Assembly (NCBI RefSeq): GCF_003334765.1
Contig: NZ_QOWT01000006.1
Source: Escherichia coli
GTDB lineage: Bacteria; Pseudomonadota; Gammaproteobacteria; Enterobacterales; Enterobacteriaceae
Reading direction: 5' to 3' (one strand)
DNA length: 64,000 bases
The notes under the pieces were generated by a model. The model did no database searches. It was not told the origin of the DNA and was given only the letters and a program-made list of their open reading frames with translations. Shown one piece after another: positions 39,228 through 43,903 of this stretch; position 1 is the stretch's first letter; each line of letters opens with the position of its first letter. Both the position numbers and the translations under genes were made by a program.

Positions 39228-41903
39228 TTACTTCAACATATTACGAATGACATAATGCAAAATGCCGTCGTTCTGGTAGTAGGTCAACTCCGTCGCGGTG
39301 TCGATACGACAACGGCAGGGTACGACTTCCTGGCTACCATCCGCGCGCGTAAGCGTCACCGGAACCGTCGCGCCGGGTTGTAGGTTTTGCAGATCGCCAA
39401 TATCAATCTTCTCTTCCCCGGTTAGCCCTAACGTTTTACGCGTTACGCCTTGCGGAAATTCCAGCGGCAGGATGCCCATGCCAATTAAATTCGAACGGTG
39501 AATTCGTTCAAACGATTCGGCAATCACCACACGAATACCAAGCAGACGCGGACCTTTTGCCGCCCAGTCACGACTGGAGCCTGATCCATACTCTTTCCCG
39601 GCAATCACCGCCAGCGGCGTTTGCTCCTGCTTATAGCGCATCGCAGCATCATAAATAGAGACTACGTCGCTGTCAGGTAAATGCCGCGTCATCCCCCCTT
39701 CAACGCCAGGCACCATTTCATTACGGATGCGAATATTGGCGAAGGTGCCGCGCATCATCACTTCATGGTTACCACGCCGCGAACCGTAGGAGTTAAAGTC
39801 TTTTCGCTCAACACCCCGACCTTGTAGATATCGACCCGCTGGGCTGTCGGGCTTAATACTGCCCGCCGGAGAGATATGGTCAGTGGTGACTGAATCCCCC
39901 AGCATTGCGAGGATCCGCGCACCGTGAATATCTTCCACTGGTGCTGGTGTTGCCTGCATTTCATCAAAGAAAGGCGATAAGCGAATATAGGTTGAGTCCT
40001 CCTGCCAACCGTAGGTATCGGATCGTGTGACGTTAATTCCCTTCCACTCTGCTGTGCCTTCAAAAACTTCTGCGTACTCTTTGCGGAACATTTCTGTGGA
40101 GACTTGTTCTACCGCACGGGCAATTTCTTGTGCCGATGGCCAGATATCTTTCAGATAAACCGGATCGCCTTTGCGATCATGGCCGATAGGCTCAGAAGCC
40201 AGGTTGATATTCATATTTCCCGCCAGCGCATAGGCAACCACCAGCGGCGGCGAGGCCAGCCAGTTAGTTTTAACCAGCGGATGGATACGGCCTTCAAAGT
40301 TACGGTTGCCGGACAGCACCGCACCGACGGTTAAATCGCCTTTTTTGATTGCCGTTTCGATAGGATCGGGCAGCGGCCCAGAGTTACCAATACAGGTGGT
40401 ACAACCGTATCCCACAAGGTTAAACCCCAGTTCGTCGAGATACGGTGTCAGTTTCGCTTTTGCCAGATAATCAGAAACGACTTTCGAACCCGGTGCCAGC
40501 GACGCTTTGACCCATGGTTGCCGCTTGAGGCCCAGAGTTACGGCTTTTTTCGCCAGCAAGCCTGCGGCCATCAGCACACTTGGGTTAGAGGTGTTGGTGC
40601 ACGAGGTTATCGCAGCAATGACCACAGCGCCATCAGGTAACTGATACTGATGTCCGTTCATAACATAATCGACCGGCTGGCGATCTTTATGCGTGGCATT
40701 CACTTCCAGTTCGTTACTGGCGGCAAATGCTTTTGGTACATCGGGCAGTGCAACGCGATCCTGTGGGCGTTTAGGCCCTGCCAGGCTCGCTTCAACGTCA
40801 TTCATATCCAGTTCTAACGTACTGGTAAAAATTGGTTCATCGCCCGGGTTACGCCACATGCCCTGCGCTTTGGCATATTTTTCGACCAACTCGACCTGAT
40901 CTTCGCTGCGCCCGCTTAAACGCATGTAATCGAGGGTTACAGCATCGATTGGGAAGAAGCCACAGGTGGCACCATATTCTGGCGACATATTGGCAATGGT
41001 GGCGCGATCCGCCAACGGTAGTGAATCCAGACCATCACCATAAAATTCGACGAATTTCCCCACCACGCCATGTTTGCGCAGCATTTGGGTAACAGTGAGA
41101 ACCAGGTCTGTGGCGGTAATACCTTCACGTAATTTTCCGGTAAGTTTGAAGCCCACTACATCCGGGATAAGCATGGAAACCGGCTGGCCTAACATTGCGG
41201 CTTCTGCTTCGATCCCACCAACGCCCCACCCCAGCACGCCAAGGCCGTTGATCATGGTGGTGTGCGAGTCAGTACCAACGAGTGTATCCGGATAAGCAAT
41301 CCATTCACCGTCCTGCAATTCACTCCACACTGCTTTGCCGAGATATTCGAGGTTAACCTGATGGCAAATGCCTGTGCCTGGCGGCACGACGCTAAACCGA
41401 CTGAACGCTTGCTTTCCCCATTTCAGGAACACATAACGTTCGTGGTTGCGCTCCATTTCCAGGCGTACGTTTTCTTCAAATGCCTCATCATCACCAAAAC
41501 GATCGACGGTCACCGAGTGGTCAATGACCAGGTCGACCGGTGAGAGCGGGTTAACCTTTGCAGTATCGCCGCCGAGGCGTTTAACCGCTTCGCGCATTGC
41601 CGCCAGATCAACAACGGCAGGTACGCCGGTAAAGTCCTGCATCAGCACCCTTGCCGGGCGGTAGGCAATTTCACGGTCAGCATGGGCATTTTTCAGCCAT
41701 CCTGCCAGCGCGTGGATATCCTCTTCGGTAACCGAGTTACCATCCTGCCAGCGCAGCAGGTTTTCGAGCAAAACTTTGAGTGACTTGGGTAGACGGGTGA
41801 TATCGCCCAGTGATTTAGCAGCAAGCGGCAGGCTGTAGTAGTGGTAAGTTTTATCTTTGGCCTGCAACGTGTCCTTACTGGCTTCTCGTAGGGTTGACGA
41901 CAT
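39228..41903 (-). CDS. acnA: aconitate hydratase A
   Basis: 891-aa [54 protein letters not shown]... Confidence 0.96.
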
Positions 41904-42066
41904 AGCTCCTCCTTAATGACAGGGTTGCGAAGCCCTGATTCTCTTCAGGGTGAATATTAAAGATAACACAAACATCGCGTAACGATTTGATAACAACCCA
42001 AATTGATAAAAGAGGAGAAACCTTGTGGCAAAGCAAATGACAACCCCGCCGCAGCGGGGTCAAGGA

Positions 42067-42162
42067 TCAGTGAGTAATGATCCAGAGGAGTTCGGCCCAG
42101 AAGAGCATCGACAGAGAAAACGCGCCCATCCAGGACCAATATTTCATATTTGTGTTGATCAT
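42067..42162 (-). CDS. candidate 31-aa hydrophobic small protein (MINTNMKYWSWMGAFSLSMLFWAELLWIITH)
   Basis: Hand-translated codon by codon; ATG start, TGA stop, followed within about 10 nt by a ccccgc-tgcg-gcgggg hairpin on the coding strand; below the ORF-track size cutoff. Confidence 0.4.
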   Translation of the reverse strand: MINTNMKYWSWMGAFSLSMLFWAELLWIITH

Positions 42163-42275
42163 AGGCTACACCCTTAACGGTTATTATTTTGTGTTGAGAT
42201 AACTCAAGCTGTTATTGCTGCGGTGTATTAAAAGCCCTTTAATTCATTAAAAATGGGTAATAAGAATGATGATAA

Positions 42276-42443
42276 TTATTGTTTCGGCTGATCATCTTCA
42301 GCAAACAGTTCTATAAAGGCTTGCTGCTGCGATGTTAGTTGCCAGTCGTCTGGAATAACGACGGAACATTCCCGTTTCGTTTCTGTTTCATTGTCACTAT
42401 GCTGGCATAATGGTGACGACTCCAGTTGCTCCTGACCGACCAT
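42276..42443 (-). CDS. yciX: small protein YciX
   Basis: ORF track 42276..42464; internal ATG start MVGQEQLESSPLCQHSDNETETKRECSVVIPDDWQLTSQQQAFIELFAEDDQPKQ (55 aa). Confidence 0.7.
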   Translation of the reverse strand: MVGQEQLESSPLCQHSDNETETKRECSVVIPDDWQLTSQQQAFIELFAEDDQPKQ

Positions 42444-42445
42444 AG

Positions 42446-42574
42446 TTATCCCCACACTTTCCAAATCAGCAGTGCGACAACCACCCAGAAAAGTGCAGAA
42501 CCAAGAAAAACCGCCAGCCAGGCTTTACGTTTTAATTCAGGATCGCGGCGGGGTTCCTGATTTCCAGAAGGCAT
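42446..42574 (-). CDS. ymiA: small single-TM protein (MPSGNQEPRRDPELKRKAWLAVFLGSALFWVVVALLIWKVWG)
   Basis: Hand-translated; SD gagg 8 nt upstream of ATG; stop lies 2 nt before the yciX ATG; alternative in-frame ATG at 42586. Confidence 0.6.
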   Translation of the reverse strand: MPSGNQEPRRDPELKRKAWLAVFLGSALFWVVVALLIWKVWG

Positions 42575-42904
42575 TGCTAACCTCATATAATCGCCATCAC
42601 TTATCAGCAAGACGTTGAACGATTGGTGTAATTAATCATACGATGAGACAAATCCTAAAGAAACTTTAGTCAAAAATCCAGCGAATTTACGAATCGTCTC
42701 CAGTGAATAATTCAATCTTTTGACCTGAAATAGATATTTGAAAACTGGAGTTTGCGAGGCGGGTAATTAGACACTACTTTACAGGTAATTTACCCTATAA
42801 ATATGAGGGATAAAAATATTGTGCACGGTATAGAAATAAGTAACAAAAGAGAATATATTCCGGCACCTTCGCTACATAAAAGGTGCCGAAAATAACGCAA
42901 GAAA

Positions 42905-43903
<999 letters not shown>

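Follow-up and report, generated by a model that had tools for sequence, protein, structure and literature searches.

The stretch of DNA analysed here, the window, comprises 64,000 nt of contig NZ_QOWT01000006.1 from Escherichia coli, and all coordinates given below are positions in it. In the interval between cysB and acnA the window carries ymiA-yciX-ymiC, an E. coli operon of small proteins that is already annotated, with all three genes on the minus strand (Table 1). The corresponding RefSeq products are WP_001300896.1 (YmiA, 46 aa), WP_001297116.1 (YciX, 55 aa) and WP_001310756.1 (YmiC, 31 aa), and the window DNA matches, with 100% identity, records in which yciX (WP_001297116.1) is annotated, so that the names ymiA and yciX, proposed in a preliminary description of the sequence, are confirmed by the annotation of matching DNA. 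The region is 95-100% identical, and annotated with cysB, ymiA, yciX, ymiC and acnA, in 5,422 of the 5,426 complete E. coli genomes. The genes are hence already known, and the ymiA-yciX junction is an ordinary one for an operon. For the comparative part we used a set of 81 enterobacterial species loci; cysB and acnA flank ymiA in the window, as they do at almost all of 80 species loci.

The preliminary description placed the gene pair upstream of acnA. The pair indeed lies on that side, although not directly, as ymiC, which had been missed, and a terminator-like hairpin intervene. Transcription of the operon is driven from upstream of ymiA, the promoter activity immediately upstream of ymiC being negligible, and the induction of the operon by low Mg2+ depends on PhoQ (PMC11429745). 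ymiC sits on the 3'UTR of yciX and has no promoter of its own. YciX exceeds the 50-aa cut-off for small proteins and was outside the scope of that study (PMC11429745).

The single transmembrane segment ascribed earlier to YmiA agrees with the hydropathy profile: among 19-residue Kyte-Doolittle windows the maximum, 2.54, falls at residues 24-42 (numbered in the 46-aa form), and the basic cluster KRK stands before it at residues 19-21. GFP-YmiA localises to the membrane (PMC11429745), and YmiA is an N-in, single-pass inner-membrane protein. It was validated earlier by epitope tagging (PMC11429745), and was detected as a 46-aa protein by PRM mass spectrometry at about 1,000-3,000 copies per cell (PMC12529367). 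The NCBIfam model NF000536 (YmiA) matches with 96.8 bits (cut-off 30), its 42 positions corresponding to residues 5-46, and the Pfam family PF22868 is present in all YmiA homologues.

Table 1. Features of the ymiA-yciX-ymiC locus (window coordinates)
Feature	Coordinates	Strand	Remarks
Candidate -10 hexamer TATGAT	42635..42640	-	Inside the conserved upstream block; inferred
TTG start, 54-aa form of YmiA	42608..42610	-	2014 GenBank annotation, MLISDGDY...
33-nt leader ahead of ATG 42574	42575..42607	-	Conserved as nucleotides
ymiA CDS, RefSeq form	42446..42586	-	46 aa MRLAMPSGNQEPRRDPELKRKAWLAVFLGSALFWVVVALLIWKVWG + TAA (42448-42446); TetRP, Onc112/retapamulin profiling and peptide LAMPSGNQEPR in K-12
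GAGG Shine-Dalgarno for ATG 42574	42581..42584	-	6-nt spacing; overlaps ATG 42586 and the Arg2 codon
M5 ATG, downstream in-frame start	42572..42574	-	42-aa form, 2006 annotation; invariant in 81/81 species
YmiA transmembrane segment codons	42461..42517	-	Residues 24-42, LAVFLGSALFWVVVALLIW
ymiA-yciX junction	42444..42453	-	GGGG(A) SD-like run 42453-42449 in Trp45-Gly46 codons, TAA 42448-42446, CT 42445-42444
yciX CDS	42276..42443	-	55 aa + TAA 42278-42276
YciX conserved motif codons	42303..42353	-	P31-x-x-W-x-L-[TS]-x-x-Q-x-x-F-I-x-x-F47
Rfam RF02079 (STnc180) match	42033..42235	-	198 bits, gathering score 50; spans ymiC and the terminator, the 3' portion of the operon transcript
ymiC, third cistron	42067..42162	-	31-aa small membrane protein; NF041484 66.3 bits, cut-off 42
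Terminator-like GC-rich hairpin after ymiC	42041..42062	-	Likely end of the ymiA-yciX-ymiC transcript

Start codons and leader of ymiA

There are three candidate starts in the frame of ymiA: TTG at 42610 (54 aa), ATG at 42586 (46 aa, MRLAMPSG...) and ATG at 42574 (42 aa, MPSG...). The Shine-Dalgarno sequence (SD) of the last, GAGG, forms a duplex of -6.3 kcal/mol with the 3' end of 16S rRNA, and only 3.4% of random 20-mers from the window pair at least as strongly; ATG 42586 is preceded by a discontinuous match of -4.6 kcal/mol, a value reached or exceeded by 9.8% of such 20-mers. This is the order of strengths claimed in the preliminary description.

The experiments in K-12 select another start. 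In TetRP profiling the major initiation is at MRLAMP, that is, at ATG 42586, and both the start of the 42-aa form and the TTG of the 54-aa form give little signal (PMC4909307), and according to Onc112/retapamulin profiling ymiA "likely initiates with MRLAMP" (bioRxiv 10.1101/511675). The tryptic peptide LAMPSGNQEPR was also detected (PMC4909307); it cannot derive from the 42-aa form, and thus translation begins upstream of M5. Hence the published data favour YmiA being made in K-12 mainly as the 46-aa form from ATG 42586, and the 42-aa ORF with an open start, as initially described, is not supported: both profiling studies and the peptide favour the start of the 46-aa form, which RefSeq uses. 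The reasoning behind the shorter ORF was nevertheless sound, as no start other than ATG 42574 with its GAGG is invariant. We face a discrepancy, in which the strongest and sole invariant pair of an SD and an ATG is the one little used according to profiling in K-12.

The codon at -12 relative to the invariant ATG (42586 in the window) is ATG in 59 of the 81 species, GTG in four, and a non-start codon (ACG, AAG or GCG) in the remaining 18. Kosakonia (with ACG), Phytobacter and Trabulsiella are among the genera with ACG or AAG at -12, and E. fergusonii has GAG. At -33 an ATG is present in 70 species; non-Escherichia species have it in place of the TTG start of the 54-aa form. Both upstream starts are available in 52 species, only the one at -33 in 18, only the one at -12 in 11, and there is no species with neither, although this zero is weak evidence, since about 2.4 such species would be expected under independence. 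The SD of the -12 start has a duplex energy of -4.6 kcal/mol in all five Escherichia loci, compared with a mean of -2.4 kcal/mol elsewhere. By these patterns, the start of ymiA has turned over, the ATG codons at -12 and -33 appearing and vanishing between genera against the background of the universal ATG 42574 with its GAGG; Escherichia lost the -33 ATG and acquired a better SD for the -12 ATG.

If the 42-aa form were ancestral and still a significant form of YmiA, the -12 and -33 codons would be lineage-specific N-terminal extensions or dual starts, and the leader mainly a conserved RNA or DNA element with a 5' regulatory role. The invariance of M5 and of its GAGG in all 81 species is in line with this possibility, as are the 18 species where the -12 codon cannot serve as a start and the NCBIfam YmiA model, which covers only residues 5-46. 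The leader agrees with it as well. Its diversity by codon position is 0.129/0.127/0.119, compared with 0.16/0.10/0.44 in the ymiA core, so the conservation is at the nucleotide level and codon periodicity is absent; the codon AGG of Arg2 is invariant in 81/81 species. Nevertheless, the low TetRP signal at ATG 42574, the placement of initiation at MRLAMP by two studies and the peptide that proves translation upstream of M5 all speak against a significant role of the 42-aa form in K-12, and each species has at least one in-frame upstream start, weak as this last argument is. We therefore consider an ancestral and still significant 42-aa form possible, but not the probable state of affairs, and retain the 46-aa form as the main product in K-12.

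Judging by its conservation pattern, the 33-nt leader may be an undescribed element of post-transcriptional control, which could also select among the three in-frame starts. Several specific candidates for control elements in or upstream of the leader did not hold. A structured or riboswitch-like leader is not supported, as its folding z-score is +1.0, and an Rfam scan upstream of ymiA produced no match at E <= 1. A mini-uORF in the +1 frame, starting with an ATG at -23, would stop at a TGA that shares bases with the -12 ATG or, in species having ACG at -12, at a TAG two nucleotides before M5; its ATG, as estimated from codon tables, is retained in only about half of the species. Nor did we find, by eye, a canonical PhoP box upstream of ymiA: the best repeat, AGTTTC-N5-GATTTG, has four mismatches to (T/G)GTTTA-N5-(T/G)GTTTA, and the text of PMC11429745 does not mention a PhoP box. 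Thus, the dependence on PhoQ may be indirect or operate via a degenerate site.

The ymiA-yciX junction

As described previously, two nucleotides (CT, 42445-42444) separate the TAA of ymiA from the ATG of yciX (42443-42441). Position 42443 corresponds to K-12 coordinate 1,335,291. The cistrons join as TGG-GGA-TAA-CT-ATG, and the SD of yciX (GGGG) lies within the last two codons of ymiA, hence a ribosome terminating on ymiA would sit over the yciX start. The yciX SD, GGGG(A), has a duplex energy of -5.5 kcal/mol, and 6.7% of random 20-mers from the window pair at least as strongly.

Taken alone, the 2-nt spacing is ordinary for operons, since tight junctions are frequent in the window: for 2.2% of its stop triplets, an ATG that opens 55 or more codons lies 0-4 nt further on, and junctions of this kind are found at 11 of its 101 ORFs with 100 aa or more. 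What exceeds chance is not the spacing itself, but its conservation in 80 of the 81 species. In each of these a yciX-like ORF begins 0-4 nt after the ymiA stop, with an ATG at 1-4 nt in 79 species (at 2 nt in 55) and a GTG at 0 nt in S. diarizonae; S. arizonae is the only species lacking a yciX-like ORF. The pattern TGGGGN-stop-(0-4 nt)-ATG is likewise retained in 80/81 species. The spacer between yciX and ymiC drifts, from 99 to 158 nt across species. In distant relatives, too, the two ORFs stand in tandem; they are 2 nt apart, overlap as GTGA or ATGA, or have between them 13 nt with its own GAGGA.

Given two cistrons on the same strand and the same transcript, with a 2-nt gap and the downstream SD inside the upstream ORF, translational coupling of ymiA and yciX is plausible on the sequence layout. 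Translation of yciX would be at least partly coupled to that of ymiA via termination-reinitiation or local hand-over of ribosomes, holding the two products at a fixed ratio. A literature search returned no experiment testing the dependence of yciX translation on that of ymiA.

One variant of coupling, the unmasking of a start site hidden in a hairpin, can be set aside. In E. coli the minimum-free-energy structure pairs a part of the yciX SD with the SALFW codons of ymiA, but its z-score relative to shuffled sequences is +0.3, and across 39 species no helix that is conserved or covaries was found to cover the SD, the consensus structure having an energy of -0.1 kcal/mol. As the hairpin is neither more stable than shuffled sequence nor conserved, coupling by unmasking is unsupported, and the coupling proposed here would not depend on it.

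Alternatively, the 2-nt spacing could merely reflect genome compaction, with ribosomes binding de novo to the GGGG(A) of yciX and the output of yciX being independent of ymiA. Given its pairing energy and suitable spacing, the SD could suffice for separate 30S binding; no conserved structure occludes it; one distant relative (L085) has the 13-nt spacer with a separate SD; and tight junctions, frequent in the window, are common in operons regardless of the strength of coupling. However, independent initiation does not readily agree with a distance held at 0-4 nt in 80/81 species next to a spacer that drifts by tens of nucleotides, nor with the ATGA or GTGA overlaps, a classic layout of coupled genes, in distant and non-syntenic copies. 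Moreover, gaps this short in E. coli operons generally yield measurable coupling. We regard fully independent initiation as unlikely, albeit deserving of consideration, and keep partial coupling as the preferred explanation.

The YciX family and its association with YmiA

YciX is acidic (12 D+E, 3 K+R) and mostly disordered, with one C-terminal helix confidently predicted at residues 38-51 (42291-42332), the only helix in the AlphaFold model. According to these predictions, it is probably soluble and largely disordered, and has a conserved helix motif towards the C-terminus, in which W34, L36, Q40, F43 and I44 are invariant. Over the whole of yciX dN/dS is 0.34, and over the C-terminal half 0.19; the diversity by codon position (0.23/0.15/0.49) has a clear third-position wobble, and by this comparison the ymiA and yciX frames both evolve as coding sequence. 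The ORF is 55-57 aa long in 74 of the 80 species having one.

The family is not restricted to Escherichia. A word-indexed search matched only Escherichia and Shigella, but this is an artefact of its insufficient sensitivity, and the orphan status is refuted by tblastn in the syntenic region and by a profile search, which yielded 74 clusters. YciX had no match in NCBIfam; Pfam gave none either with the protein or with an alignment of 45 sequences, and no remote homology was found among PDB sequences, PADLOC or PHROGs. A curated HMM for the family thus appears not to exist, and we define the family by the conserved motif.

Several YmiA-YciX fusions (P0004, P0013, P0038) were considered as candidates for a frameshift or natural fusion. 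These correspond to a 17-nt deletion between TGGTT repeats, which destroys the transmembrane segment. They come from short metagenomic contigs, the fusion junction occurs in none of the 5,426 complete genomes, and they are rare variants or assembly errors.

YciX is almost always joined to ymiA, and hence a partnership of YmiA and YciX in the PhoQP response to low Mg2+ is a concrete, testable hypothesis. One copy of the ymiA-yciX pair is situated outside the cysB-acnA synteny, beside a phage-type integrase; no non-syntenic pair was found in plasmid and phage collections. If developed to its extreme, the partnership would be an obligate module, in which YmiA is the membrane anchor, the disordered acidic YciX docks via its C-terminal helix and might modulate or neutralise the growth inhibition by YmiA, the junction fixes the stoichiometry, and the pair is mobile as a unit; together with the regulatory role of the leader, which is a separate point, we consider this scheme speculative and rather improbable.

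Still less probable, indeed very doubtful, is a pair resembling a toxin and its antidote, with YmiA as a harmful small membrane protein and YciX as a co-translated neutraliser. Overexpression of YmiA alone causes a growth lag of 8-10 h and longer cells, both effects being abolished in a start-codon mutant, although deletion of ymiA has no phenotype (PMC11429745). The pair travels together, including the integrase-adjacent copy. On the other hand, the pair has no match among the PADLOC (defence) or PHROG (phage) families and is absent from the plasmid and phage collections, the locus shows stable synteny throughout the family, and the induction by low Mg2+ via PhoQ fits a stress response. Besides, toxicity on overexpression is frequent among small membrane proteins.

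Finally, that yciX codes for nothing and is an ORF present by chance towards the 3' side of the ymiA mRNA, for which one could cite the lack of direct protein or ribosome-footprint evidence for YciX in a literature search, the missing Pfam, NCBIfam and PDB families and the Escherichia- and Shigella-only matches of the word-indexed search, is hardly credible, this reading being already largely refuted by the comparative data, that is, by the ORF in 80/81 species with mostly conserved length, the low dN/dS of the C-terminal half with third-position wobble, the invariant residues and the 74 clusters, and by the origin of the apparent restriction to Escherichia in search sensitivity.

Taken together, a known operon, YmiA produced mainly as the 46-aa form in K-12, yciX partly coupled to ymiA, and turnover of the ymiA start form the joint reading that we favour, with a probability of roughly 75%. 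What is new is modest: that the start codon has turned over, that the YciX family is broad, and that a copy of the pair exists outside the synteny. ymiA exemplifies N-terminal start codons that turn over between genera, and provides a lesson for annotation, being a small-protein gene where sequence logic and experiment in K-12 disagree about the start, and YciX represents a fast-evolving family widespread in enterobacteria rather than an orphan of Escherichia.

Comparison with known systems

The locus is that of the E. coli K-12 operon ymiA (b4522), yciX (b4523) and ymiC, with identical RefSeq sequence and the same flanking genes cysB and acnA. We see no difference between the two; only the 42-aa model of ymiA in the preliminary description was an older one.

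The 3' part of the operon also matches the covariance model of STnc180, an "enterobacterial sRNA" (RF02079), but the match lies downstream of ymiA-yciX and coincides with the ymiC coding sequence. The original report of STnc180 described signals of 500-2000 nt and interpreted them as probable processed mRNAs. Thus, given this coincidence and the lack of its own promoter, we rejected STnc180 as an independent non-coding transcript.

The pairs mgtS-mgtT and yriA-yriB likewise encode small proteins in one operon with PhoQ-dependent induction by low Mg2+ and tightly juxtaposed stop and start codons (PMC11429745). The two genes of each of these pairs, however, share an out-of-frame overlap, in contrast to the 2-nt gap between ymiA and yciX.

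In the classical coupled cistrons of E. coli, the genes are joined by ATGA or TAATG overlaps or by short gaps. With these ymiA-yciX shares the common strand, an SD of the downstream gene that lies within the upstream one, and a stop and a start within one ribosome footprint, and the ATGA or GTGA overlaps typical of such cistrons occur in its distant relatives. As a putative coupled pair, ymiA-yciX differs in having no conserved inhibitory hairpin.

Gene layout and the start of ymiA

The 1.1-kb region is matched at 95-100% identity in 5,422 of 5,426 complete E. coli genomes, with the annotated gene order cysB, ymiA, yciX, ymiC, acnA (products "YmiA family putative membrane protein", "protein YciX" and "small membrane protein YmiC"); hence, the locus is the already known ymiA-yciX-ymiC operon. 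When the ORFs were re-read on the minus strand, the coordinates and the 2-nt ymiA-yciX spacing of the preliminary description proved exact, and its single-TM peptide indeed has one strongly hydrophobic segment (residues 24-42, Kyte-Doolittle 2.54) after a KRK cluster. NCBIfam models match YmiA and YmiC above the cut-offs. The placement of the pair upstream of acnA holds for the gene neighbourhood, but not for immediate adjacency, as ymiC and a terminator-like hairpin, both missed initially, intervene.

Features of the ymiA-yciX-ymiC locus and of two Salmonella loci with deviating yciX
Feature	Position	Strand	Remark
ymiA frame LLISDGDYMRLAMPSGNQEPRRDPELKRKAWLAVFLGSALFWVVVALLIWKVWG*	42610-42446	-	translation
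ymiA candidate in-frame starts	TTG 42610, ATG 42586, ATG 42574	-	
ymiA stop TAA	42448-42446	-	
CT spacer		-	2 bases between ymiA stop and yciX ATG
yciX ORF	ATG at 42443, end at 42276	-	55 codons
ymiC	42162-42067	-	31 codons; between yciX and acnA
Terminator-like hairpin	42062-42041	-	between ymiC and acnA
S. enterica subsp. diarizonae / arizonae loci	L037 2139-2312 and L061 2139-2330		

The same description gave ymiA 42 aa and an ambiguous start, with a good SD at ATG 42574 and not at ATG 42586. The SD remark is borne out: GAGG at 42584-42581, 6 nt upstream of ATG 42574, pairs with the 3' end of 16S rRNA at -6.3 kcal/mol, whereas ATG 42586 has only a discontinuous match at -4.6 kcal/mol (3.4% and 9.8% of random 20-mers from the window reach these values, respectively). 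The 42-aa model, though, is superseded, and published K-12 data already favour ATG 42586. In TetRP profiling the major initiation signal falls on the MRLAMP start (PMC4909307). Relative to it, the start annotated in 2006 (42 aa) is 12 nt downstream and that annotated in 2014 (54 aa) 24 nt upstream, and both of these gave little signal. The tryptic peptide LAMPSGNQEPR, noted in the same paper, cannot come from the 42-aa form. Independently, Weaver et al. (bioRxiv 10.1101/511675) state that ymiA "likely initiates with MRLAMP", and the current RefSeq model has 46 aa.

Comparison of the ymiA loci of 80 Enterobacteriaceae species representatives and the window (n = 81) conflicts instructively with the K-12 experiments. 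All 81 loci share ATG 42574 and the AGG within its SD, whereas at the position of ATG 42586 (-12) there is an ATG in 59 loci, a GTG in 4 and an ACG, AAG or GCG in 18. An in-frame ATG 33 nt upstream of ATG 42574 is present in 70 loci, with CTG in Escherichia. At least one of these two upstream starts is kept in every species (neither: 0 loci vs about 2.4 expected), which is weakly non-random. The SD of the ATG at -12 is better in all five Escherichia loci (-4.6 vs a mean of -2.4 kcal/mol elsewhere). The 33-nt leader itself (42575-42607, minus strand) is kept at nearly every nucleotide in the 81 species and lacks codon periodicity, the diversity at the three codon positions being 0.129/0.127/0.119 vs 0.16/0.10/0.44 in the ymiA core; its conservation is at the nucleotide and not at the protein level, and no stable structure is predicted in it (z = +1.0). 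Our reading is start-codon turnover atop a conserved 5' element, with Escherichia now using the ATG at -12; a minor 42-aa proteoform is conceivable.

YciX and its junction with ymiA

A word-indexed protein search suggested that YciX is confined to Escherichia/Shigella, but this was a sensitivity artefact; short, fast-evolving proteins can appear orphan in such searches. Here, tblastn in synteny and a profile search revealed a family-wide distribution at 30-50% identity. The profile search over 1.84 billion representatives yielded 74 clusters, nearly all of 50-65 aa, while no family match was found in Pfam, NCBIfam, PDB, PADLOC or PHROG. The conserved part reads P-x-x-W-x-L-[TS]-x-x-Q-x-x-F-I-x-x-F, after which come acidic residues and KKQ; W34, L36, Q40, F43 and I44 are invariant. 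AlphaFold leaves the N-terminal part disordered and predicts a single confident helix, at residues 38-51. By its substitution pattern, yciX evolves as coding sequence: dN/dS is 0.34 for the whole ORF, with 0.72 for the N-terminal half, which is variable, and 0.19 for the C-terminal half, where the diversity (0.23/0.15/0.49) has the usual third-position excess. The dN/dS of the ymiA core is 0.13. A literature search found no direct experimental evidence for the protein.

A YciX-like ORF directly follows ymiA in 80 of the 81 loci (55-57 codons in 74). In 79 of them its ATG lies 1-4 nt past the ymiA stop (1 nt, 13 loci; 2 nt, 55; 3 nt, 9; 4 nt, 2), and in S. enterica subsp. diarizonae a GTG follows the stop at 0 nt, opening a 56-aa ORF with the motif intact. 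In subsp. arizonae yciX is lost and the distance from ymiA to ymiC is about 96 bp shorter. The junction is TGGGGN-stop-NN-ATG almost everywhere, hence the codons for the C-terminal Trp-Gly of YmiA double as the yciX SD. Its energy is -5.5 kcal/mol in E. coli and, over the species compared, averages -6.25 kcal/mol with a median of -5.4. In contrast to this gap, the yciX-ymiC spacer varies from 99 to 158 nt.

Thus, an operon, two frames under purifying selection and a family-wide tight junction in which the yciX SD falls within ymiA are observed. The suggestion of translational coupling made in the preliminary description is reasonable: it may proceed by termination-reinitiation or local ribosome hand-over, and would fix the ratio of YmiA to YciX. 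A literature search found no direct experimental evidence for it. Independent initiation of yciX at its own SD is a live alternative, as tight junctions (a stop triplet followed within 0-4 nt by an ATG opening at least 55 codons) are common in operons; in the window they occur at 2.2% of all stop triplets and at 11 of 101 ORFs of at least 100 aa. Coupling by unmasking finds no support, the E. coli junction hairpin being no stabler than shuffles (z = +0.3) and the 39-species consensus leaving the SD unstructured (-0.1 kcal/mol).

Expression and flanking sequence

Vellappan et al. (PMC11429745) treat the three genes as a single operon that is induced under low Mg2+, dependent on PhoQ, with negligible promoter activity directly upstream of ymiC; GFP-YmiA localizes to the membrane, ymiA deletion has no phenotype, and YmiA overexpression causes a lag of 8-10 h and cell elongation, effects abolished by a start-codon mutation. 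sPepFinder assigns ymiC to the 3'UTR of yciX, with no promoter of its own. The 46-aa YmiA was detected by targeted mass spectrometry at roughly 1,000-3,000 copies per cell. The cysB/ymiA intergenic region has been classed as a "promoter island", and a ChIP-validated AtoC-binding motif, GCGAGGCGGGTAATTAGACA, is reported at -199 to -180 from ymiA (about 42753-42772, minus strand); its reverse complement can be seen in the window.

The Rfam family STnc180 ("enterobacterial sRNA") matches 42033-42235 (minus strand) with 198 bits. As the match coincides with ymiC and the terminator hairpin, and the original Salmonella paper described 500-2000-nt signals and a likely processed mRNA, STnc180 corresponds in essence to the 3' end of the operon mRNA, which carries ymiC.

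The ymiC-acnA spacer has 149 nt in some lineages of E. coli, strain SSGNw1 among them, vs 163 nt in the window (about 41904-42066), implying an indel of 14 nt in the acnA promoter region. The distal acnA promoter, reportedly described by Cunningham, Gruer and Guest in 1997, is said to lie about 400 bp upstream of the acnA ATG; its TSS would presumably be at about 42310, in the 3' part of yciX, with ymiC then on the acnA leader. In strain YPE10 (NZ_CP041448.1) the window region 41850-42950 is matched as two pieces spanning 1,878 bp, and an IS1 family transposase is annotated under the match, which implies that an IS1 element has inserted at some point between cysB and acnA.

Distant and fused copies

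In three metagenomic "fusion" proteins (P0004, P0013 and P0038) the N-terminus of YmiA continues into full-length YciX through a deletion of 17 nt between TGGTT repeats (window about 42481-42497), which destroys the TM segment; this junction is absent from all 5,426 complete genomes of E. coli. P0039 is apparently a different fusion, via loss of the ymiA stop, as judged from the protein.

Distant members retain the tandem order. Locus L084 has the junction TGGGGC-TGA-GT-ATG, as in the main family, L088 a GTGA overlap, and L085 a 13-nt spacer with its own GAGGA. In L086 and L087 a ymiA-like/yciX-like pair with an ATGA overlap adjoins a phage-type integrase, outside the cysB-acnA synteny. Here (L086 1466-1698 and L087; Logan ERR15948566, ERR12057324) the ymiA-like ORF has 36 aa (...LLLWWWLI), the YciX-like partner is MSQDKEE...IPEHWQLTPEQRRFIDD..., and a 137-aa CxxC protein matching phrog_1244 also adjoins the pair. 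No copies of this type of pair were found in plasmid or phage collections.

The present analysis adds modestly to what is known of the operon: how broad the YciX family is and which motif it carries, how widely the junction is conserved in the family, a turnover of ymiA start codons next to a leader conserved in its nucleotides, and a copy of the pair outside the usual synteny.
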